Position numbers and translations under genes: made by a program. Source: Vulcanimicrobiota bacterium (GTDB lineage: Bacteria > Vulcanimicrobiota > Vulcanimicrobiia > Vulcanimicrobiales > Vulcanimicrobiaceae). From it: DNA of 64,000 nucleotides. The notes under the pieces were generated by a model that was not told the origin of the DNA, did not search any database, and saw nothing but the letters and a program-made list of their open reading frames with translations. Below are positions 1,199 to 11,585 of this stretch, in pieces. The stretch's first letter is position 1; each line of letters starts with the position of its first letter. Where the stretch lies: assembly GCA_963812155.1 (NCBI GenBank), contig CAWETW010000003.1, forward strand, positions 1,024,001-1,088,000. The letters are read 5' to 3'.

Positions 1199-2842
1199 CT
1201 AGATGCGCCATTCCCACGCGTTCCAAAAGGGCGTGACCGCGTGAGCCGGGCGATAGTTCTGCAAATCGGTGTTGACGACGTCGAGTTCCTGCTGATACCA
1301 GAGAACGAAGAACGGTAAGCCTTCCGCGGCGATCTCTTGAATGCGGTAATAGGCTGCGCGGCGCACGGGCGGATCGTACTGGGTGAGGGCCTCGTTCTCG
1401 GCGGCGTCGAGCGCGGGACTGCAAAAGTGGTAGACGTTCCAGCCGTTCGGCGGCGCCATTTTGCACGCAATGAGGATGGAGTCGTCGGGGTCGAAGCCGT
1501 TCGCCCAATTTTCGAAGATGACGTCGAACTTTCCGGACTGCTCGATGCCGCCGGCCGACTGCGTCGCGTAGAGCTGGCCTGACGGATAGTTCTTGATGCT
1601 TACGTCGACGCCGGCCTGACGCCATTGCGCCTGGATGAGTTCTTCGGCGGCGGCGGCCGTTTGCGACCCCGTGAAGCTGGCCAGCGTGAGCGCGAGCGGG
1701 CGGCCGTTTCGGTAACGGATGCCGTCGGACTGCATGCGCCAACCGGCGGCGGCGAGCAGCCGCGCGGCCGCCGCGAGGTCGTAGGGATAGTGACGTGCGT
1801 GCGGATCGTACGCCCAGGAAAACGGCGGCTGATCGGTTTCGCCGAGAATCGTCACGCCGTGCGTCACCTTATCCACGAGCGCTTTGCGATCGGTTGCGTA
1901 CGCCAGCGCGCGGCGCACCCGCACGTCGCTCAGCGCGGGAACCGACGCGTTGAATCCGATGTCCGCGTAACGCGTGAACGGCGAGAGCACGACGCGAGTT
2001 CCAGGAATGCCGCGCAGGCTTTGCACCATCGTTTCGGGCGCGCGATAGAAAAAGTCGATCGCGTGGGATTGCAACATGGCGAGCATCGTGTTGTCGTTGG
2101 CAACGATGTGCCACTCGATGCGGCGCAGGCCGGGCGGCCCGCGCCAATACCGATCGTTCGCCGTGAAGACGATTTCGGAGCCGCGTTCGTAGCGCTCGAT
2201 GCGGAAGGGCCCGGTCCCTACCGGCCGTTCGTTATAGGCAACGCGATTGAGGTCGGGATAGCGCGAGAGCAAATGTTTCGGGAGAATGCAGTCGGGATGG
2301 TTGGCCATCGTGAAAAAGCCTGCCACGAACGGCGCGTAACGGCGTTTGAGATGCACGACGACCGTATAGGCGTCGAGCTGGTCGATGCTCGAGATCAGAT
2401 CGTAGCCTTGGCGGCTGACGACCGCGTTGCGCGGATTGAGCATTTGATGCCACGTGTAGACGAGATCGCCGGCGGTGAACGGCACGCCGTCTTGCCACGT
2501 GACGCCGCGGCGCAAGCGATACCTGATCGCCAAACCGTCTTTCGAGATATCGCCGTTGCGCAGCGTCGGCTCGCGCATCGCCAACTCCGGGACGAGCACG
2601 TTTTTGTCGCTGACGTGGAAGAGATAGGCAGCCCAGAACATCGAGAGATCGGTGTCGATGGTCTCGGTTCCGAGCAGGATGTTGAGGTTCGAAGGGTCCT
2701 GACGCGACGCGATGCGCAAAACGCCGGGAACCGTCCACGCATTGCCTTGGCCGGCGTGGCGGTCGCCGGTGCGCGTGCACGCGGTTGCGGCGAGGGCGGC
2801 GAGGACGAGCGACGCGGCAATCCGCGCGGCGCGTCTTTCAAT
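1199..2842 (-). CDS. Peptide/nickel ABC transporter substrate-binding lipoprotein (family 5); start codon uncertain
   Basis: LRRGVTWQDGVPFTAGD and PVGTGPF motifs. The frame extends upstream of the track start (2719) through a lipoprotein signal RRAARIAASLVLAALAATAC to about 2842, with no in-frame ATG/GTG/TTG (ATT at 2842, or an out-of-frame TTG at 2841). Confidence 0.85.
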   Translation of the reverse strand: MERRAARIAASLVLAALAATACTRTGDRHAGQGNAWTVPGVLRIASRQDPSNLNILLGTETIDTDLSMFWAAYLFHVSDKNVLVPELAMREPTLRNGDISKDGLAIRYRLRRGVTWQDGVPFTAGDLVYTWHQMLNPRNAVVSRQGYDLISSIDQLDAYTVVVHLKRRYAPFVAGFFTMANHPDCILPKHLLSRYPDLNRVAYNERPVGTGPFRIERYERGSEIVFTANDRYWRGPPGLRRIEWHIVANDNTMLAMLQSHAIDFFYRAPETMVQSLRGIPGTRVVLSPFTRYADIGFNASVPALSDVRVRRALAYATDRKALVDKVTHGVTILGETDQPPFSWAYDPHARHYPYDLAAAARLLAAAGWRMQSDGIRYRNGRPLALTLASFTGSQTAAAAEELIQAQWRQAGVDVSIKNYPSGQLYATQSAGGIEQSGKFDVIFENWANGFDPDDSILIACKMAPPNGWNVYHFCSPALDAAENEALTQYDPPVRRAAYYRIQEIAAEGLPFFVLWYQQELDVVNTDLQNYRPAHAVTPFWNAWEWRI

Positions 2843-3684: not shown

Positions 3685-3760
3685 GTCCTTCGACTGCGCG
3701 TGCTGCGCACGCGGAGCCTGTGCTGAGCGAGCGAAGCGAGTCGAAGTGCTCGGATGACAC
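3685..3760. repeat. REP-like palindromic element, composite copy with an inverted unit nested inside
   Basis: GTCCTTCGACTGCGCGTGCTGCGCACGC...GCTCGGATGACAC enclosing GCTGAGCGAGCGAAGCGAGTCGAAG; shares its ends with copies at 5224, 24378, 24451 and 43690. Confidence 0.8.
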
Positions 3761-3776
3761 GGTCAGGATCACACGG

Positions 3777-5210
3777 CTAGTCGGGCGGCCCGCCGTCTTT
3801 TTGGATGATTTCTTGTGATCGCGTGAAACCGGGGCGGCGCAGGAAATACGCCTGGCCAAACGGCGCGCGGAATGGCGTGAACTTTCCCGGCGATTGCTTG
3901 AAGTCTAAGATGTCGCCGATCGAGTTTGCGCGGACGTCGGTCGCTCCGAGCGATCCGGTGCTGAAGTTTTGTTCGATAAACTTGAGCACGCTGCCGAACT
4001 CGTACTGCGTTTTGGAGACGTAGTGGCGCTTGGCGTAGGGCGAGATCACGAGCAGCGGCACGCGCATGCCGAGGCTCGTGTAATCGAGTTGCGGCGGCGG
4101 CACGTTGTCGTAGAAGCCGCCCCAGTCGTCCCAGAGCACGACGATGACCGTGCTGTTCCAATAGGGGCTCTGTCCGACGGCGTTAACCACCGACGACACC
4201 CACGAGGGGCCCTTGTTGTTGCCGCTTGCGGGATGGTCGGAGTCGGGCAGGTACGGAATCACCCACGAGACTTGCGGGAGCGTCCCGGCTTTGATGTCTT
4301 TGAAGATCTTGGTGTTGGGAGTGCTGACGTTTTTCCAATCCGAACCGTATCGCACGCCCTTGATCGCGTCGAAGCCGTTCCAGACTCCGCCCGAAAAGTC
4401 GTCGAGGAATCCGGCGACGTAGAATCGCCAGGAGACTTTGGCGGCGTCGAGCACGTCGGCCATGGTCTTATACTGCGTCAGGCACGGAAACGGGCCGGCG
4501 TTGTCGTCGACCTTGCCGTTGCTGTAGATCAATCCCGTGGTGGTGCGCTTGTCTTCGTTGTCGCAGCCCCACGGGATCGACGACGGCGTATCCACCAGCG
4601 ACTCGTTGGAGTTCAGTGCGGTCGTGCCGGCGATTATCTGCTGGTGCGCGACGAAACTGTCGGTCGTCGCGGTCGAGAACATGTGATCGCCCACCGCGTA
4701 GCGCGACGCCATGTCCCAATACGGCTGCACCTCGCTGCGCTCGACGAACGCGTAGGGATAAAACAGCGCCGGACCGTTGCCGCCCGCGGTTCCAAATGAG
4801 ATGGTGTCGAACCCATCCATCTTTCCGCCGTCGTATTCGGCTTCGAACGCGGCGTGATCGTGGGCGATGTCGGTTCCGCCCAAACACTTGCAGGTCTCCA
4901 GCGTGATCTGCTGCAGCGGCACCGGCGTGGGCGACGGACCGGGGCAGATCTCCTTATGTTTCGGCGGCGTGTACGGGATGCACAAGCCCGTCGTGCTGGT
5001 ATCGGCGCCCGGAAAACTCATGAAGATGTTGTTGAAGCTGCGGTTCTCTTGCAGCATCACGATGACGTGCTGGATCTTCGAGACGGGCGGAGGCGTCGGC
5101 GTAGGGCCGGCCGATCCCGTTGGCAGGGGAGCCGTCGACGTATTGAGATTCGAACTGCAGCCGCCCGCAGCGATGATTGCGAGGGCGATGAAAGTCCGAA
5201 AGCGATTCAC
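3777..5210 (-). CDS. Phosphoesterase (AcpA/phospholipase C family) lipoprotein, copy 1
   Basis: Lipobox [42 protein letters not shown]. Confidence 0.92.
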   Translation of the reverse strand: MNRFRTFIALAIIAAGGCSSNLNTSTAPLPTGSAGPTPTPPPVSKIQHVIVMLQENRSFNNIFMSFPGADTSTTGLCIPYTPPKHKEICPGPSPTPVPLQQITLETCKCLGGTDIAHDHAAFEAEYDGGKMDGFDTISFGTAGGNGPALFYPYAFVERSEVQPYWDMASRYAVGDHMFSTATTDSFVAHQQIIAGTTALNSNESLVDTPSSIPWGCDNEDKRTTTGLIYSNGKVDDNAGPFPCLTQYKTMADVLDAAKVSWRFYVAGFLDDFSGGVWNGFDAIKGVRYGSDWKNVSTPNTKIFKDIKAGTLPQVSWVIPYLPDSDHPASGNNKGPSWVSSVVNAVGQSPYWNSTVIVVLWDDWGGFYDNVPPPQLDYTSLGMRVPLLVISPYAKRHYVSKTQYEFGSVLKFIEQNFSTGSLGATDVRANSIGDILDFKQSPGKFTPFRAPFGQAYFLRRPGFTRSQEIIQKDGGPPD

Positions 5211-5223
5211 GTAGTTTCCTCCA

Positions 5224-5266
5224 GTCCTTCGACTGCGGCGCTGCGCGCCTCCGCTCAGGATGACAC
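5224..5266. repeat. REP-like palindromic element
   Basis: GTCCTTCGACTGCGGCGCTGCGCGCCTCCGCTCAGGATGACAC; one mismatch to the copy at 24378-24420. Confidence 0.85.
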
Positions 5267-5393
5267 GCGTGGGGACGACACACGTTTTTGCGTGTTTTGG
5301 GGCGTTCCCTCGAAAACGCAGGAAAAACGACCGTGGTTATTGCACCAAAGGAACGCTAAAATCTAGTGGTTTCCGTACGTAAGGAGAAAGTCA

Positions 5394-5903
5394 ATGCGTT
5401 ATCTCACCTCGGCGCTGGCAATCGTAGCGATCGCATTCGCATTCGCGGCTTGCACCGGCAAGTCGTCGTCGAGTTCCGACCAGTCAAACTCGACGAGCGC
5501 GGAAGCGACCGCCGCGGCGAGCGGGGAAGCAACCGCAGCGCCGAGCTCGGATGCCGGCGCGATGAGTTCCGAGGCCAGCGCCGAACCGGCCGCTGCCGCG
5601 GCATCCGGCCCGATTCCGGACTATCCGGGCGCGACGGTGCGCAGCCAAAGCGACGCGTCGAACATGATGACGACCAACGCAATGGGGCGCGTCCTCGAAA
5701 CGCCGGATTCGTTCGATAAGGTCTATCAGTGGTACCAGCAGAAAATGCCGCCGGATTCAGAGCGCATGCACGTGACGCAGCCTCACCCGGACGCCGTCTT
5801 CGTCATCACCGATCCGGCCAAGGGTCAGGATTCGGTGGCGATCGTGGTCAGCCACGGTAAGACGATGATTACGATCGCCCACGTGGGCCTAAAAACGAAG
5901 TAG
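5394..5903 (+). CDS. Hypothetical lipoprotein with Ser/Ala-rich linker
   Basis: AAGGAG RBS; lipobox FAAC; C-terminal domain beginning IPDYPGA and containing TPDSFDKVYQWYQ. Confidence 0.75.
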   Translation: MRYLTSALAIVAIAFAFAACTGKSSSSSDQSNSTSAEATAAASGEATAAPSSDAGAMSSEASAEPAAAAASGPIPDYPGATVRSQSDASNMMTTNAMGRVLETPDSFDKVYQWYQQKMPPDSERMHVTQPHPDAVFVITDPAKGQDSVAIVVSHGKTMITIAHVGLKTK

Positions 5904-5915
5904 CGAGCGCGGCGG

Positions 5916-6176
5916 CTATTTTTGAACGGCGCGCCACGCGCCGTCATCGCCGCCGCTCCACTCCACGTACCAGCCGCCGCCGCATGGAATGGCGGGCTTG
6001 TCGAGTTGGTCGGGAGCGATGCCGAACGCCATGAGAACGTGCTTCGACGCTTCGCGCATCTCGCGCGACCAGCGTTCGACTTCGGGAGTCGCAGTGGCCG
6101 GAATAGCCCGGGTTGCCCGAGCGATTCCGTTGAGTCCGTCGGCGATCGAAGCGGCGATCGCCTTGTAGTCGATCAC
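5916..6176 (-). CDS. Small hypothetical protein (86 aa)
   Basis: GTG start 3 nt after the HD-GYP stop; protein-like composition; fills the gap to the convergent gene. Confidence 0.6.
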   Translation of the reverse strand: MIDYKAIAASIADGLNGIARATRAIPATATPEVERWSREMREASKHVLMAFGIAPDQLDKPAIPCGGGWYVEWSGGDDGAWRAVQK

Positions 6177-6179
6177 GAG

Positions 6180-6992
6180 TTATGCAGCAGTCGAGCGGAC
6201 GATGCGCAACCGGCGCGTGCCCATCAAGCGGTCGAGCGCAGCGACGACGTCCGAATCGTAGAGTTTTCCGGCGTGGTCGTCGAGATGGACGAGCGCGTCG
6301 TGAACGGCCAGCGTCCCGCTTGCGGATGCCATCGTCGTGAAGACGTCAGCGACGGAAAGGATGCGCACTTCCAGCGGAATGTCCGGGCCGCGCAGTCGAT
6401 CGGGATAACCGGATCCGTCGAGACGTTCGTGATGGGCGCGAATCCAAGGTGCATAACGCTGGAGTGCGGGAATCGCGCGCAGCATGTTTTCACCGGCAGC
6501 GGCGTGGCCGTCCGTGTGCGTCCCCTGCGTGGCGATCTTTCCGACGTCTAATAGGCGTCCGGCGACGACGACGTCGTGGACGCGATCTCCGTCGAGCCCG
6601 AGGGACTTGGCGATGCTACCGGCAAGGGTGCCCACACCCGAGAGATGAGTGGAGAGCGTCGGATCGACGGCTCGAATCATCTCATGCATCGCATCGACCA
6701 AGTCCTCGGGCTTCGTGCCTCGGACGGAGGCTTGTTCCCACGCAACTTCGCGGACACGCTCGCGCAGCGCATCAAGACGAGCGAGCGTCGTGCGGCGGCG
6801 CTGTGCCGGAATTTGCGTGGATATTTCAACGCTTGCGCGATCGACGAGAGCTTCGATCTCGTCGGGCGTGGCGGCGTGCATCTCGCGCCGCACCCAATCG
6901 ACGATCGCCCAGCGATCCTCGAGCGTCACTTCGTTGGCAACGATCGAGAGCAGCTCAGAGTAGGCGGAGTGCTCTCCGGGATAGCGCTTCAT
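6180..6992 (-). CDS. HD-GYP domain protein with degenerate HD motif
   Basis: HHERLDGSGYPDRLRGPDIP and RILSVADVF are present; the HD position reads RLLDVGK instead of the usual LLHDIGK. Confidence 0.85.
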   Translation of the reverse strand: MKRYPGEHSAYSELLSIVANEVTLEDRWAIVDWVRREMHAATPDEIEALVDRASVEISTQIPAQRRRTTLARLDALRERVREVAWEQASVRGTKPEDLVDAMHEMIRAVDPTLSTHLSGVGTLAGSIAKSLGLDGDRVHDVVVAGRLLDVGKIATQGTHTDGHAAAGENMLRAIPALQRYAPWIRAHHERLDGSGYPDRLRGPDIPLEVRILSVADVFTTMASASGTLAVHDALVHLDDHAGKLYDSDVVAALDRLMGTRRLRIVRSTAA

Positions 6993-6998
6993 GCCAGA

Positions 6999-7085
6999 CT
7001 ACGGGTTTGGCAGGTACGGCGGAACGATGTTGGGCAGCACGTGGTGCGCGAACACAATCAACTGGTGGAGTACGGCCAAAAGCAT
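6999..7085 (-). CDS. Putative small hydrophobic peptide (28 aa), not in the ORF track
   Basis: MLLAVLHQLIVFAHHVLPNIVPPYLPNP*; AAGGAG RBS at 7097-7102; TAGAAT -10 at 7121-7126; stop 6 nt before the HD-GYP start. Confidence 0.6.
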   Translation of the reverse strand: MLLAVLHQLIVFAHHVLPNIVPPYLPNP

Positions 7086-7261
7086 GGGGGAGGGTTCTCC
7101 TTAGTGAGGCAAGTGCGTTGATTCTACCGGGTGCCGGATTCGCGCGCATGACACTTCGATGCTATCGTCGCTCTCTATGACTTCGCTGCTGCGCAAGCTG
7201 CGATCTAGGTGGCACGGATAGGTGCGCGCTCGCGGGGAGGCACGCTTTGTCTGAGGATTAT

Positions 7262-9625
7262 TTAGAGGAGGCCGAGGCGACGCGCGATGGCGACCGCTTC
7301 GAGGGTGTTGCCCGCGCCGAGTTTGCCGATGATGGACCGGCGTTGATTTTTGATGGTATGGACCGAACGCCCGGTCAGCGAGGCGATGCGCGGCGCGTCC
7401 ATGCCGGAAGCCAGATAGGAAAGTACCGAGAGCTCGGCGCGCGAGAGGGTCGAGCGCTGGCGATCGAGGCCGCAGGCGTCGGCCATCATCGCGATGCCGG
7501 CAAAGCCCGACGAACGCATGGCGTCGGCGTAGCTTGCGATGTCGTGCTGCGCGGCAAAGCGCCGCGCGGCCCCAACGAAGACTTCACCAATGGCCGTCGA
7601 GGCTTCGCACTGGAGCCGGGCCGAGGCCGACGCGGGCCGGCGCAGCAGCACCTCGGCCATGGCGGCGAACGACGAGGCCATCTCGGCGTGGGCGATCGCG
7701 AAGGGGTCGGGCGCGGCCGGGGCCGCGAGCGAAAACTGGCGGAGCAACTCCGAGCCCCGTTCGGACGCGCCCGCGGCGCATGCGAGGAACGCGCCTAAGC
7801 CCAGAGGCAAGCGCTGCATCTGTGGCGGGGCGGCGCAGGCGAAGGCGGCGAGCCGGTCGACTGCCGGCAGCAGTTGTCCGTTCCAGCCGTCGACGATCGA
7901 CCGGCAGACGGCGTAGGTCTCCATGCCGAGCCAGTCGGGGCCGATGCGCCGGATGGCTTCATCGTAGGCTGCAGCGCGCGCGGCCCGGCCCGCCAGGACT
8001 TCGATTTCAAAGGCGGCGACGAGGTCCGAGGCGCGCTCGGTCGGGTCACCCACGAGTTCTTGGAGCGCGATGAGCCGGCCGGAATGGACGGCCGCGAGAT
8101 CCACGTTCGCGCGCAGCGTCGCAATCGCGTAACGGATTTTCAAGGCGCGCACTTCCAGCAGCACCGAGCCGCCGGCTCGGGCCGCGTCTTCGCCGCGGGA
8201 CGCGAGGCCCTCGGCTTCGTCGAGGGCATTGTTGCGCGCCGCATGGAGCGCGCCGTAGATGGCTGCGCGAGCGACGAGCCGCGGTTCGCCGCTGCGCGAT
8301 GCGGCATCCGCCGCGGCGGTGAGGTGGCCTCGATCGGCCGTAATGTGTCCGAGCAGACAGGCGCGCAGGACGATCGTATCGGCATCCTCGGGCGTCATAG
8401 ACAAGAGCGCCTCAACCGCATTCGGGCCACGCGCGGTGTGTGCCATCGAACGCGCGAGGCGGACGGCGGCCGCGGGCGCGCGGCGGGAGGCTTCGCTCAG
8501 AACGCCTTCGGCGACGATCGCCGCCTCCTCGAACTGCGAGGCGAAGGTGAGCAAGAAGCAGCGCGCGGCGGTGCGCGCCGGCGCGGGAATTTCCGGGTGG
8601 GCCGCAAGCCGCTCGAGTGCACCGCGGTCGAAGCGCTCGAAGAGCGGCGCGAGGAGGCTCCAGCCGCGTTCGGCCAAAACGTGCGGCGCTTCGGCCGCCA
8701 GCAGCCCGAAGACCGCCGAAGGATCGGCGTGGTCGAGCGTCATCGCCTCGGCAACGGCCGCGCGTTCGGCGGGATCGGCGGCCTTGTGCACTGCCGCGAC
8801 GACCACCTCGTGCAATCCCGACTCCGATTCGGGGAAACCCAAGCGGCGCGCGACGCGCAACTGTTCGGCCGACGGGCGAATTCCGTGTGTGCCGGCGATG
8901 GCCGCCGCGATTAAGGCAATCCGTTCGGGGGGCGCCATTTCGGCCAGGGTCGAGGCGGCCACCGACGCGACGCCGTCGCCGAGTTGCGCGAGAACCTGTT
9001 CCGGCGTGCAGCCGCGCCGCAGCAACGACGCCCCGAGCGTCGCCGCGATCGGCCATCCGCCGTAAGCGGAGACGATCGTCGTCGCCAGCGTCCGCGCGTC
9101 GGGTGCGTCGCCGAGCACCTCGAGCACCTGTTCGGTGCGAAACGCCAGCGTATCGGGACCGAACGGCATGCCGATCAATCCCCGCGCCATCCACGAGCCG
9201 ACCGAAAAGGAAGCCATGGAACGCCCGATGAGCACGAGATGCGGGTCTTCCGCGTCGACCAGTGCTTCGACTAAACGCAAGCCTTCGGGATCGAGACGCT
9301 GCACGTCGTCGACGAGCAACGAACAGCGCGGCGGCACGGCGGAAAGAATGGATCGAATCGCACCGTCGGCGTCGCCGGCTAAACGCGCGACGATGCTGCC
9401 GGCGTCCTCGGCGCTCAAGCCAAGCGCGTGCAAAAGCGCACGATGAAACGATCCCGGGCGCGAACCCGCCGGAACCTCAATATAATGCGCGTTTGGAAAC
9501 GCCGCGCGCACGGCGGTTGTTTTGCCCCAACCGGGACCGGCTTCCACGAGTAAAACTCGCTCGTGAAGAAACGCCGCCCGCAGCGCTCGGACCGCCCCGG
9601 TTTCAACCCTCGCCCGTTCCTCCAG
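7262..9625 (-). CDS. MalT-like (STAND) LuxR-family transcriptional regulator
   Basis: Walker A GPGWGKTT, Walker B LLVDD, GGWPIA, Ala-rich helical middle region, C-terminal LuxR HTH (LSRAELSVL...SVHTIKNQRRSIIGKLG). Start probably CTG at 9625 behind GGAGG; the track start at 9547 cuts into the P-loop strand. Confidence 0.88.
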   Translation of the reverse strand: MEERARVETGAVRALRAAFLHERVLLVEAGPGWGKTTAVRAAFPNAHYIEVPAGSRPGSFHRALLHALGLSAEDAGSIVARLAGDADGAIRSILSAVPPRCSLLVDDVQRLDPEGLRLVEALVDAEDPHLVLIGRSMASFSVGSWMARGLIGMPFGPDTLAFRTEQVLEVLGDAPDARTLATTIVSAYGGWPIAATLGASLLRRGCTPEQVLAQLGDGVASVAASTLAEMAPPERIALIAAAIAGTHGIRPSAEQLRVARRLGFPESESGLHEVVVAAVHKAADPAERAAVAEAMTLDHADPSAVFGLLAAEAPHVLAERGWSLLAPLFERFDRGALERLAAHPEIPAPARTAARCFLLTFASQFEEAAIVAEGVLSEASRRAPAAAVRLARSMAHTARGPNAVEALLSMTPEDADTIVLRACLLGHITADRGHLTAAADAASRSGEPRLVARAAIYGALHAARNNALDEAEGLASRGEDAARAGGSVLLEVRALKIRYAIATLRANVDLAAVHSGRLIALQELVGDPTERASDLVAAFEIEVLAGRAARAAAYDEAIRRIGPDWLGMETYAVCRSIVDGWNGQLLPAVDRLAAFACAAPPQMQRLPLGLGAFLACAAGASERGSELLRQFSLAAPAAPDPFAIAHAEMASSFAAMAEVLLRRPASASARLQCEASTAIGEVFVGAARRFAAQHDIASYADAMRSSGFAGIAMMADACGLDRQRSTLSRAELSVLSYLASGMDAPRIASLTGRSVHTIKNQRRSIIGKLGAGNTLEAVAIARRLGLL

Positions 9626-9698
9626 GTCTACCTCCGGAACTGCCCGATTCTGGGCTGCCCGTCCGGCTCCTTGAAAAAGCGGAGCTTGGTGTGAACAG

Positions 9699-11585
9699 TC
9701 AGCCGCCGGAGACGTCGATCAGAAGTTCGGTTGCCAGCGCGATCAGGAAGCCGGCAGTGATTGTCGTGGTGACCAGCGCGGTGAGGCCGGAACGGCGCAG
9801 CAGCGACCAGAGCTCGCCGATGACGAAGACGAGCGCGCCGACGGCAGTTGCCAGAAACAGCACCGAAAGCACGGGCGAGTAGAACTGATAACCGACCACC
9901 GTGCCCAAGAAGGTTGGACCGCCGGCAATCAGGCCTGCGACGCCGATTTGAAACCAGGTCGGCACGAAGCGGCCGACGAGCGGCGCGGCGATCCCGAAGC
10001 CTTCGGTCGCATTGTGCAGCGCGAAGCCGACGATGAGCGCGACGGCGATGGCCGTCGAACCGGCCGCGGCCGACGCGCCGATTGCCAAACCTTCGCCGAA
10101 GTTATGCGCGCCGATACCGATCGCGACGATCGTCGACAGCAACAGCGGATTCTCGGCATGCTGGGCGGCGTTGCGCGTGAGGTGCGTGGCGACACTTCCC
10201 AGTCCGACCAGCCCGACCAACAGGCCGATGATGAAGACTGCGACGGTCGTGAACGGGAACGGCTGCGTGCCTGCGTGCCAGGCGTTGACGTTTTGCACGA
10301 TGGGTGCGATGGCGTTCTGTGCAATTTCTACGACGAGGTAGAGCAGAATGCCGATGGCGAGCGCGTTGAGCAACGCAATCGTCTGCATCGATACCCGCCG
10401 TGCACGCGCGATCGGGAGACCGAGGAAGATCGTAAAGCCGGCGATGGCGCCGAGAACGATCGTCATCCCGAAGCTCAGCGGTTTGGGCGCCGAAGCGTTC
10501 ATGGCGGGCATCATTGCGTCGTACATGCTGGCGATCGTGTTCGGCGTACCGGCGTAGTGAATCGCGGTAACTAAACCATCGGGCATGCCTCGCCCGTCTT
10601 CGACGTGATCGAGGACGTGGCAATGCAGCAGCCACGTCCCGGGTTTTGCATCGGCTTTCACGACGACGTCGATGCGCTGTCCAGGCGCGAGCATCACGGT
10701 ATCTTCTAGTTCGGGAGCGCTCACCGGCTGCGCGTCACGCGCGACGATTTGCTGATAGTGGCCGTGCGTATGCATCGTGTGAAAGTTTTCGGCCGAGATA
10801 TTGACCCAGCGTATGCGAAAACGTTCGCCCGCTTTTACGTCGAGCGTTTGCGCGAGCGGATACTCTTTGCCGTTGAGCGTGAACTCATCTTCGGCCGCGC
10901 TTTGAATCTGCCAGGAGGAAAGTATCTCGAGGAAGTCGCCGCCGAGATTGCGTTCGTAAGGGAGCGGATGCGACGGCTTGACGACGATCGCGCCGTAGAG
11001 CCCGGAGTTGAGCATCGCTTCCTGATCGTGCGAGTGATAGATGAACGTGCCAGGCGTGTCGGCGACGAAGCGGTAGACGAAGTGTCCGCCGTGCGGCACG
11101 AGCTGCTGCGAAATTCCAGCGACGCCGTCCATAGAAACGGGAATGTCGTGGATGCCGTGCAGATGCACCGTGTCGGGCGTGACGTCGTCGTTGGCGTAGT
11201 CAATGACGACCGTATCGCCTTGGTTCACAACGATGGCCGGCCCGGGAACGACCCCGTTGTAGGTGTTGGCCATTACCGTCAATCCCGGCTTGAGCGTCCA
11301 GGGCGCGGCGCGCTCGACGATGTGGAACGTTTTCGTGCGGCCTTGGACTTGTGGGATCGCTTGGTAGGCGCCGTCCGGGCGCCGGGACGTGCGCGATTCG
11401 CCGGGAGCCGGCGTCGCTACGGGAATCGGGCCGCGGATCGGTTGCAAACCGAGCGTCGTGGAGTTGGCGCTCGGAACCTCGTCGGCGTCGGCCCGCGCGG
11501 GGACCGGCGCGAAGGCTGCCGCGGACAAAGACGGCGAGGAGACAACGCGAGCAGCCAATGGCTTGCAGAGCCGGCAGAAAGGCAT
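9699..11585 (-). CDS. Two-domain multicopper oxidase fused to a ZIP-family metal transporter
   Basis: Copper motifs HLHG, YHSH, HTMHTHGH, HCHVLDH, then about 8 hydrophobic segments with ZIP signatures GIGAHNFGEG and ALHNATEG, all in one uninterrupted ORF. Confidence 0.9.
   Translation of the reverse strand: MPFCRLCKPLAARVVSSPSLSAAAFAPVPARADADEVPSANSTTLGLQPIRGPIPVATPAPGESRTSRRPDGAYQAIPQVQGRTKTFHIVERAAPWTLKPGLTVMANTYNGVVPGPAIVVNQGDTVVIDYANDDVTPDTVHLHGIHDIPVSMDGVAGISQQLVPHGGHFVYRFVADTPGTFIYHSHDQEAMLNSGLYGAIVVKPSHPLPYERNLGGDFLEILSSWQIQSAAEDEFTLNGKEYPLAQTLDVKAGERFRIRWVNISAENFHTMHTHGHYQQIVARDAQPVSAPELEDTVMLAPGQRIDVVVKADAKPGTWLLHCHVLDHVEDGRGMPDGLVTAIHYAGTPNTIASMYDAMMPAMNASAPKPLSFGMTIVLGAIAGFTIFLGLPIARARRVSMQTIALLNALAIGILLYLVVEIAQNAIAPIVQNVNAWHAGTQPFPFTTVAVFIIGLLVGLVGLGSVATHLTRNAAQHAENPLLLSTIVAIGIGAHNFGEGLAIGASAAAGSTAIAVALIVGFALHNATEGFGIAAPLVGRFVPTWFQIGVAGLIAGGPTFLGTVVGYQFYSPVLSVLFLATAVGALVFVIGELWSLLRRSGLTALVTTTITAGFLIALATELLIDVSGG

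Follow-up and report, generated by a model that had tools for sequence, protein, structure and literature searches.

Organization of the locus and the 28-codon gene

The locus lies in the window (the whole 64,000-nucleotide stretch of DNA that was analyzed) and comprises four ORFs, all on the minus strand. The largest (7262-9625) encodes a MalT-type STAND transcription regulator of 787 aa, counted from a CTG codon with the RBS GGAGGT (9630-9635) 4 nt 5' of it; GGAGG followed by a CTG start was found also in 12 of 12 regulator homologs listed. The regulator gene is separated by 269 nt from the gene of a 270-aa HD-GYP-family protein (6180-6992), and this gap contains a 28-codon ORF (6999-7085), preceded by the RBS AAGGAG (7097-7102) and the -10 hexamer TAGAAT (7121-7126) of a putative peptide/HD operon; the hexamer and both RBSs were read from the sequence. 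The small ORF stops 6 nt before the HD-GYP start, and an 86-aa ORF (5916-6176) begins 3 nt after the HD-GYP stop. The four ORFs are located where an earlier note, made from the letters of this DNA, had placed them, and the AAGGAG RBS, the -10 hexamer and the 6- and 3-nt spacings that it named are present. In one metatranscriptome run, with 8% of words present, contigs of 209 and 222 nt fall on 5748-5956 and 6598-6819, and no contig covers the small ORF or the regulator.

An ORF of 25-28 aa with an RBS and a common core is present at the equivalent site in all 14 orthologous Ca. Tumulicola loci, and the AGGA core of the RBS is kept across them. The pooled dN/dS of the small ORF is 0.31 (9 pairs). 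The predicted product consists of a hydrophobic, uncharged leader (residues 1-19) followed by a Pro-rich tail. The leader drifts (all-pairs pN 0.50 vs. pS 0.67), whereas the core IVPPYLP (residues 20-26; 7008-7028, minus strand), the proposed mature signal, to which the final two residues of the product may also belong, has pN 0.07 vs. pS 0.45 and is near-invariant in the genus as (I/L)VPP(Y/S)(L/M)P, with Y, S or H at its fifth position. Of the longer tail PNIVPPYLPNP named in the earlier note, the Pro-rich character stands and only the portion IVPPYLP is conserved. The note had suggested both the dN/dS estimate and a search beside homologous regulators, taking the lack of a conserved small ORF there as a refutation; such an ORF is present, and the idea survives. 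As judged from its presence in all 14 loci and these substitution patterns, the 28-codon ORF is a real gene under purifying selection with the pattern of a propeptide.

Simple pattern searches reveal in the window peptide an h-region, no K/R, no Cys, no lipobox and no clear AxA site. In a tblastn search of the genome it comes from, the peptide gave, besides itself, chance-level matches only; the second locus of this genome was located through its regulator. The genome encodes 13 SBP_bac_5 (OppA-like) binding proteins and two M50 protease loci, genes so common that their presence proves nothing specific. The leader-core layout resembles that of RiPP precursors, and some small hydrophobic ORFs encode type I toxins, so that a precursor of a modified peptide, or a small toxin or structural protein outside signaling, may be considered. 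However, the unit contains no modifying enzyme or exporter, the conserved portion is a short Pro-rich tail, and no antisense partner was noticed, although no dedicated search was made; such a function appears extremely improbable.

Promoter region and neighboring genes

Upstream of the small ORF, a 20-bp imperfect dyad (7146-7165, minus strand) overlaps the -35 position. This box has 17 invariant columns in 14 loci and, in a scan allowing up to 2 mismatches, is matched exactly once per genome, always at this place, in 14 of the 15 genus genomes; the reversed control gave 1 match overall. Each of the other 13 loci has a TA-n-n-n-T/A hexamer as far from the box as TAGAAT is here, and 18-bp dyads occupy the equivalent place in other clades. 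Automatic choice of the best palindrome often settled on GC-rich noise and passed over the imperfect box of the genus, and the boxes were read by eye. A consensus scan of 5200-9800 yielded 0 sigma-70 sites with both hexamers and no -35, and the conserved box overlaps the place of this absent element. The conservation and uniqueness of the box mark it as operator-like, and it is proposed to be the binding site of the regulator.

The same region bears on whether the small ORF encodes a cis-acting leader or arrest peptide, in which stalling at the diproline would govern downstream translation or termination, as known for mgtL/mgtP and RAPP-type arrest peptides. A diproline near the stop codon, the nearby HD-GYP start and the well-conserved core codons would suit this role. 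However, the transcribed leader has no consensus RNA structure (the 4 predicted pairs all fall within the upstream DNA box, with 0 covarying), the spacing to the following gene ranges between 4 and more than 100 nt across the family, and the repeats within secreted lipoproteins described below cannot work in this way. Force sensing is unlikely because most of the peptides (17-28 residues) would not clear the ribosome tunnel. Stalling alone would need no such structure and may still act here; overall, a cis-acting role is considered very improbable.

The HD-GYP-family protein carries the sole Pfam HD_5 match in the genome (E 1.7e-23), and its gene has a dN/dS of 0.16. The HHExxDGSGYP motif (residues 187-197) and the first helix His are intact, as in HD-GYP phosphodiesterases, but the HD histidine is replaced (Leu148-Asp149) and 14 residues are deleted. 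All 14 genus copies lack this histidine, having Leu, Val or Cys instead, and 10 of them have lost a loop of 13-17 residues, while the HD dyad is intact in 29 of 30 rows from outside Ca. Tumulicola. The protein is therefore rightly described as degenerate. The suggested output to cyclic-dinucleotide signaling is well founded for the family at large, where by their motifs the intact HD-GYPs would lower c-di-GMP, but within the genus catalysis is doubtful, and binding of a nucleotide or protein is the more likely mode of action. A precedent linking a peptide with c-di-GMP is reportedly Thermotoga TM0504; no paper naming this gene was found in the literature searched.

The 86-aa gene has so far been found in this genus only, in the same 14 of its 15 genomes as the rest of the locus. 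It lies within 130 nt of the HD-GYP gene in 10 genomes and 1.5-3.2 kb away in 4, and a hairpin with a U-run precedes it in all 5 relatives folded. Its inclusion in the module is thus upheld only in part: it is a conserved neighbor with a 3-nt spacing here, but a terminator-like hairpin or inserted DNA parts it from the HD-GYP gene in most relatives, and it probably lies outside the core of the circuit. Its structure model is confident; there was no Pfam match above cut-off, no usable ESM Atlas hit and no Foldseek match under E 1, and a fold search of 48,161 chains gave a best Z of 5.7, with helical hairpins only. The missing fold match does not establish a new fold.

The regulator, its homologs and their peptide precursors

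The Pfam domains AAA_22 and GerE exceed the cut-off in the regulator. Its NOD module contains Walker A (residues 30-36), Walker B (103-107) and the sensor-I Arg135, which is invariant in 96 sequences, and is followed by a winged helix and arm, a helical-repeat sensor (about 380-720) and a LuxR HTH (GerE, 726-781). The AlphaFold2 model (pLDDT 91.6) aligns with the MalT NOD structure 8bob over the NOD, winged helix and arm (Z 24.4, rmsd 3.7, 344 aligned) and with MalT domain III, 1hz4, over the sensor (model residues 412-723; Z 22.5, rmsd 4.0, 304 aligned), at 12-17% identity to MalT; the best Foldseek match is the STAND protein 6mfv (E 9.6e-9). Fold, STAND motifs and the C-terminal LuxR HTH all agree with the original description of a MalT-like LuxR regulator. 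The sensor superhelix also aligns with the peptide receptors RapI (Z 18.9, rmsd 3.4, 252 aligned) and NprR of NprR-NprX (Z 17.0, rmsd 5.5, 286 aligned), a likeness only, because helical repeats match broadly.

In the family tree the regulator of Ca. Tumulicola is located on a very long branch (1.83), and family results therefore transfer to it only via synteny and anatomy. A fixed rule (an RBS, 17-45 aa, a hydrophobic 11-mer and a start 40-260 nt after a stop) is satisfied behind 53 of 101 related regulators vs. 18 of 1916 genes in a rough gene set of the window genome, an imperfect control because that set missed the second regulator of the genome. In a second, partly overlapping regulator set a small ORF was found in 56 of 76, and a metagenome scan yielded 5 loci, 3 of them useful. 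Among 102 distinct peptides, collected by a rule not asking for Pro, 100 have this residue among their C-terminal 10 positions, 77 have PP among the C-terminal 12, and 49 end with Gly. Only one carries K/R within the first six residues, the others having no positively charged n-region; by simple patterns, 9 have a lipobox and 19 an AxA 6-12 residues before the end. Tail types follow receptor clades, an agreement that may only mirror descent. Pocket conservation, over all residues of the main clade, is 0.54 vs. 0.51, and within the genus, at mapped positions, 0.84 vs. 0.78, which is not significant (p 0.083).

Other regulators are accompanied, at the equivalent position, by lipoproteins in which a short motif is repeated in tandem, 2-5 times, after the lipobox, so that the motif would be exported in these precursors; some precursors are fused to a subtilase-like domain, and three (L201, L218, L221) have little or no leader. 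No precursor lies directly downstream of 20 of 102 regulators, and for 9 of 102 the next gene encodes a larger secreted protein in which repeats are not evident.

Co-folding of the tail with the regulator, proposed in the earlier note, succeeds for a homologous pair, L181 (G133), whose regulator is about 20% identical to that of the window. The score was 0.63, the best of 3 controls, none of them a non-cognate peptide, reaching 0.01. Among solved complexes, 116 of 157 attain the mark applied, as do 2 of 215 mismatched pairs; this mark is rough here, with alignments of our own. At least 60% of contacts are shared between runs, at a partner pLDDT of 44-45. Of peptide residues 7-36, only the last nine are placed in the sensor groove, with confident contacts for 28-31 and 33-36 only. 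The predicted complex may pass through likeness to solved TPR-peptide complexes.

These data bear on an alternative in which the small protein would serve HD-GYP (or another target) as membrane partner or anchor and be merely co-regulated with it. The peptide stop lies 4-17 nt from the HD-GYP start in 13 related genus loci, and one promoter is common to both genes, as would be expected of such partners. However, both the PPDP(F/L) clade and the second locus of the window genome (G000 C1) keep the peptide without an HD-GYP gene, the orphan regulators L185, L189, L191 and L193 keep the box and HD-GYP gene without a peptide, and the homolog co-fold favors the regulator as the partner. The distribution of these genes indicates that the peptide tracks the regulator rather than the HD-GYP gene, and an HD-GYP partner is quite improbable.

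Proposed circuit and comparison with known systems

The tail bearing IVPPYLP is probably the signal sensed by the adjacent STAND regulator. The conserved ORF, the box, the tandem-repeat precursors and the homolog co-fold support the circuit put forward in the earlier note, and the locus is best read as an autoinducing, quorum-sensing-like peptide circuit with a MalT-type STAND protein, not an RRNPP protein, as its receptor, to which a probability of roughly 0.6 is assigned. The position and uniqueness of the box and the HTH of the regulator suggest that the regulator binds at 7146-7165 and switches on the promoter shared by the peptide gene and the HD-GYP gene. The hydrophobic leader would bring the 28-aa product to the membrane, where cleavage would free a Pro-rich tail of 7-9 residues, which could build up outside and return through an oligopeptide ABC transporter. 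As predicted for the homolog, the tail would bind the concave groove of the helical sensor. In MalT, maltotriose drives ADP/ATP exchange and oligomerization; the peptide may act likewise, with the HTH domains consequently binding the box. Positive feedback would give more peptide and more HD-GYP, which would lower c-di-GMP in most of the family and in this genus more likely bind a nucleotide or protein.

Conservation, promoter logic and the co-fold fit equally well a feedback within the same cell, in which the product is membrane-held or its tail is released inward and binds the sensor groove, tethering or tuning the regulator, much as MalK and MalY restrain MalT and MgrB restrains PhoQ. The uncharged leaders would allow either topology, and the few precursors with little or no leader would suit this arrangement. 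It is at odds with the position of the lipoprotein motif copies on the exported side of the lipobox, with their tandem arrangement, which makes sense as a dose of diffusible signal, and with the peptide-less orphans, whose box and HD-GYP gene are as expected of eavesdroppers. Feedback confined to the cell is therefore rather unlikely.

A wider version of the autoinducing circuit has about even chances. According to it, a family of peptide circuits with NLR-like STAND receptors evolved in Vulcanimicrobiaceae separately from the RRNPPA systems of Firmicutes. The signals would stem from short hydrophobic propeptides, from multi-copy lipoproteins or from a third precursor type, lipoprotein proteases with N-terminal tandem signal copies, perhaps self-cut. 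Pocket and tail would co-diversify into dialects, with c-di-GMP turnover as the usual output. The literature searched contains no description of a STAND-LuxR peptide circuit, in line with the earlier note, which knew of no such combination, and the locus suggests that a family of systems for communication by peptides has gone undescribed. If this is true, intracellular peptide-pheromone sensing arose at least two times, and its second origin built on a STAND ATPase, which serves MalT and NLR immune receptors as their switch. To our knowledge, nearly all inducers of the STAND-type regulator class are unknown, and ligands for it would be provided, together with cell-to-cell signaling in an abundant, barely cultured soil phylum. 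About 100 natural receptor-peptide pairs with single-site operators would be available, each of which could become an orthogonal communication part.

MalT of E. coli and the LAL regulators share with the regulator the domain order, the fold and intact Walker A, Walker B and sensor-I motifs. The ligand of MalT is maltotriose and its DNA targets are arrays of asymmetric boxes; the locus described here instead has one dyad box, in front of a peptide gene of its own, and for its regulator a peptide is predicted as the ligand.

The lux box is a dyad of about 20 bp over the -35 region. As in LuxR/LuxI, the activator adjoins the signal gene and the dyad overlaps the -35 of the signal promoter; unlike in LuxR/LuxI, the signal would be ribosomal, and the sensor is a helical superhelix with an ATPase rather than an acyl-homoserine-lactone domain.

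For the RRNPPA systems, one account (PMC9765709) describes multi-copy precursors, orphan receptors and propeptides with a variable hydrophobic N-terminal part and a conserved C-terminal core with one variable position. These systems (Rgg/SHP, ComR/ComS, PlcR/PapR, NprR/NprX, Rap/Phr, AimR/AimP) have in common with the locus a cytoplasmic helical-repeat receptor and an adjacent propeptide gene, both single- and multi-copy precursors, orphan receptors and one variable core position. Their effector is an N-terminal HTH or three-helix bundle with no ATPase, whereas the receptor described here is twice as long, with an N-terminal STAND ATPase, a C-terminal LuxR HTH and a sensor best matching MalT domain III, and some precursors are lipoproteins or are fused to a subtilase-like domain. 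RRNPPA systems are hosted by Firmicutes or their mobile elements, and the circuit proposed here by Vulcanimicrobiota (Eremiobacterota).

The propeptide gene and its promoter

Re-reading of the sequence confirmed the positions described in the earlier note for a minus-strand unit of four ORFs with its gaps: a LuxR-type regulator (7262-9625, 787 aa), a small ORF of 28 aa (6999-7085), an HD-GYP gene (6180-6992) and an 86-aa ORF (5916-6176), with a -10 hexamer TAGAAT (7121-7126) and a ribosome-binding site (RBS) AAGGAG (7097-7102) ahead of the small ORF. The organism belongs in or close to Ca. Tumulicola (Vulcanimicrobiaceae, Vulcanimicrobiota/Eremiobacterota), judging from labels on related sequences. 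Orthologs of the HD-domain gene, 47-95% identical, are present in 13 of the 14 other genomes of the genus, probably Ca. Tumulicola; the single genome lacking one is 65% complete. At all 14 genus loci, window locus included, a regulator gene lies upstream of the HD gene, and an ORF of 25-28 aa with an RBS lies between them, as the proposal of a hidden peptide gene beside homologous regulators had anticipated. Nine close, hand-chosen pairs give the small ORF a pooled dN/dS of 0.31, compared to 0.16 in the HD gene; the value of 0.10 obtained with the last 280 regulator codons is inflated by a frameshift in one regulator row. When every pair is taken, pN is 0.07 and pS 0.45 in the seven-codon core (I/L)VPP(Y/S)(L/M)P (7008-7028); the corresponding values in the leader, where hydrophobicity is retained, are 0.50 and 0.67. 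Core position 5 is His in one metagenomic locus. Since the leader drifts yet stays hydrophobic while the C-terminal core is fixed, the small ORF is read as a propeptide gene, judged by its pattern of substitution. A cis-acting leader occupying the same position is very improbable, no conserved RNA structure having been found; a modified peptide or toxin appears even more remote.

Seventeen columns upstream of the -10 are invariant across the 14 loci, while the flanking sequence is divergent. With at most two mismatches tolerated, the 20-bp box (7146-7165) occurs a single time, and invariably at this promoter, in 14 of the 15 genomes of the genus; its reversed form gave one match in total over these genomes. 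The box overlaps the -35 position, and because it covers this position a consensus promoter scan found no promoter. Other clades carry, as read by eye, an 18-bp dyad 21-23 nt before a -10, the sequence of which varies together with the HTH recognition helix. The box is operator-like, a candidate operator of the regulator, and its single occurrence per genome suggests that the visible regulon is limited to the peptide and HD genes.

Several other elements surround the unit. A single frame of 628 aa (9699-11585, minus) joins multicopper-oxidase domains to a ZIP-like transporter domain, and its C-terminus is also found upstream of the regulator in loci L106, L115, L116, and L118. A REP-like element is repeated between genes (about 5225-5266 and 3686-3760), and in another genome (G007, locus L003) three partial copies stand between the regulator stop and the box, leaving box and peptide undisturbed. 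One of the 13 OppA-like binding proteins of the genome is encoded in the window (1199-2719).

Distribution and diversity of the regulator loci

A profile of 33 rows (one being L021 of genome G022) was built on the C-terminal part of the regulator and seeded from peptide-bearing loci. Unpublished genomes bear on the conclusions solely through the L021 row and the tallies by family. Among the matches listed, the strongest (E <1e-21, long frames) belong to the Vulcanimicrobiaceae and one sister-family genome, and those in other families are mostly short, ordinary LuxR-type frames. The first locus set comprised 80 long-frame loci among the 150 matches listed, with 437 more beyond the listing, and 20 chosen regions. 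Out of 185,579 species genomes, a pattern scan retained 80 loci. Apart from two exceptions (L235, L257), ranks 1-76 bear Vulcanimicrobiota or unnamed-bacteria titles; the remaining four match weakly and come from other phyla. A fixed rule, which asks for a hydrophobic ORF of 17-45 aa preceded by an RBS, fired behind 53 of 101 regulators versus 18 of the 1916 genes roughly called in the studied genome; with a tail Pro and at most two charges added, it fired behind 50 of 101 regulators versus two of the 1916 genes, the window locus accounting for one of these. The second set gave 59 loci of 85, and 56 of 76 once metagenomic and weak rows were set aside. All these counts measure enrichment and not independent trials, as both sets overlap and contain close kin and the profile had been seeded from loci with a peptide. 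The 102 distinct peptides have a median length of 24 aa, with Pro within the last 10 residues in 100, PP within the last 12 in 77 and a C-terminal Gly in 49. On this sequence evidence the peptide unit is family-wide in Vulcanimicrobiaceae. Short peptides of the main clade carry Cys 6-14 residues from the end in 28/102 cases, with a lipobox-like motif there in 9/102; some signals of this clade could be lipopeptides.

Manual sorting of 102 regulators, including that of the window (three truncated or unrelated rows were dropped), placed downstream of them a short peptide (57), a repeat-bearing protease-like lipoprotein (14), a small precursor (2), another secreted protein (9) or nothing directly downstream (20). 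The clade with PPDP(F/L) tails has the peptide without an HD gene behind it, as does a second locus of the same genome (contig C1, near 316,400; 23-aa peptide), while L185, L189, L191, and L193 keep box and HD gene without the peptide. Because peptides persist without the HD gene and HD genes without peptides, the peptide goes with the regulator rather than with the HD gene, and it is improbable that the small protein is a partner of the HD protein that it adjoins.

The second locus (L119; C1, about 316,300-319,000, minus) consists of a STAND-LuxR regulator and a hydrophobic peptide ending VTPPTLIA, behind which come a conserved gene of unknown function and then a response regulator. Its orthologs in other genera retain HD-GYP at that place, and the counterpart in G010 (L121) lacks the peptide. 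A well-supported subclade of seven loci (L170, L174, L176, L177, L178, L182, and L187), branching among the PPDP(F/L) loci, has lost peptide gene and box and kept a full-length regulator. In a sister regulator clade (L124, L125, L195, L196, L199, L202, and L051) operator-like boxes are present, and the genes precede beta-propeller-like lipoproteins of 350-360 aa with no evident repeat.

Secreted tandem precursors occupy the peptide position in L018 (five AIPVS-type copies), L020 (three DAPSPGF copies) and L280 (five PFPVS copies). Behind some regulators, 8-9-mers ending in xxLPG occur in 2-5 copies ahead of a subtilase-like domain, in which the Pfam S8 match is weak, under the cut-off in two of three tested. 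More broadly, lipoproteins of about 400 aa with 1-5 tandem LPG-ending motifs of 8-9 residues before a subtilase/sedolisin-like domain, seemingly without prodomain, follow STAND-LuxR genes at L137, L141, L143, L146, L156, L157, L162, L165, L166, L169, L179, L192, L194, L061, L270, L271, L274, L276, L278, and L283; the motif differs by receptor subclade, and these proteins may be signal precursors that process themselves. In L221 (3460-3564, three VVPVGG copies), L201 (15 aa) and L218 (21 aa), a normal box and RBS are followed by a precursor whose hydrophobic leader is minimal or missing, which points to export by a different route or to action within the same cell. Tail types track receptor clades on the tree, a match that may reflect descent alone.

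Proposed HD-GYP output and the 86-aa neighbor

The HD-GYP protein is degenerate, as had been claimed: the HD-dyad histidine is lost in all 14 genus copies, and a loop of 13-17 residues is absent from 10 of them. The gene is still under selection in the genus, and its product would more probably act by binding than as a catalyst, judging from these residues. Since copies from other genera keep the dyad (29 of 30), the family output is plausibly c-di-GMP breakdown; the cyclic-dinucleotide output proposed earlier is thus plausible for the family and doubtful as catalysis here. The studied genome (84% complete) encodes one GGDEF protein, no EAL protein and a single HD_5 match, the window gene; its minimal c-di-GMP set comprises a GAF-like + GGDEF protein (C2:265380-265847) and the degenerate HD-GYP.

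The 86-aa gene, earlier counted as part of the module, is treated as a neighbor. It is found in the same 14 of 15 genomes as the unit, 1.5-3.2 kb away in four of them, with an opposite-strand phosphoesterase-like gene intervening at the one locus inspected. A hairpin and U-run precede it in five of five others folded (z -0.8 to -4.7), and it begins 2-3 nt past the HD stop solely in the window's subclade. The predicted fold is confident; structure comparison gave no telling match.

The regulator, its predicted ligand and known systems

The regulator has Pfam matches to AAA_22 and GerE. Its AlphaFold2 model (pLDDT 91.6, 96 sequences) is closest to two parts of MalT: the NOD part (8bob; Z 24.4, rmsd 3.7, 344 aligned) and domain III (1hz4; Z 22.5, rmsd 4.0, 304 aligned). 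Next rank peptide-binding superhelices, RapI (Z 18.9) and NprR with NprX (Z 17.0) among them, scores similar to those of many unrelated TPR proteins. The homologs share Walker A, Walker B and the sensor-I arginine with the regulator, which starts, like all 12 homologs inspected, at a CTG behind GGAGG. Its predicted fold and its motifs place the regulator among the MalT-type STAND proteins.

Co-folding of a homologous pair (L181 of G133; sensor 335-796, peptide 7-36), whose receptor is about 20% identical to the window regulator, scored 0.63, versus 0.01 for the best of three controls with unrelated proteins. Of solved complexes, 116 of 157 attain the pass mark, as do two of 215 mismatched pairs, figures that are only rough here, with our own alignments; the pass may stem from likeness to solved TPR-peptide complexes. 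Runs share at least 60% of contacts (partner pLDDT 44-45); the confident contacts lie within the sensor groove and are confined to residues 28-31 and 33-36 of the peptide, its Pro-rich tail, and the hydrophobic leader is left unplaced. In the main clade, conservation at polar-consensus columns is higher at the interface, 0.65 (15 columns) versus 0.47 (102 columns), and over all columns hardly higher, 0.54 versus 0.51. Genus-wide conservation of mapped pocket positions is not significant (p 0.083). Among genus receptors, position 396, next to the peptide C-terminus, is His in seven of the eight paired with a C-terminally extended peptide and Tyr in all seven paired with an unextended one; of six substitutions specific to the Ser-core group, three coincide with pocket positions as mapped (hypergeometric 0.04, one clade). 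Mapped across a 20% alignment, these are hints.

The peptide circuit on a STAND-LuxR regulator put forward in the earlier note draws support from the conserved propeptide gene (14/14), the enrichment in the family and the co-fold of a homolog, the circuit itself being the most likely reading. The tail would be exported, then re-imported to switch the STAND regulator, resulting in autoinduction; we give this a probability of roughly 60%. That the peptide tethers or tunes the regulator within the same cell is rather unlikely; by one route or the other, the tail is quite probably the regulator's ligand.

In agreement with the earlier note, no account of such a unit was found in the open literature, mostly exclusive of subscription journals and supplements; term look-up in the accessible text gave no mention of MalT in PMC9765709 and PMC12700828, or of LuxR in the latter. 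The regulator-propeptide system is real, conserved and apparently undescribed. Its multi-copy precursors, peptide-less receptors and one variable core position resemble the peptide quorum-sensing receptors of Firmicutes (RRNPPA), for which multi-copy propeptides, orphan receptors and one variable core position are described in PMC9765709. The unit would work like RRNPPA systems but is not a member, because its effector, a LuxR HTH at the C-terminus, follows an ATPase and its host is not a firmicute.
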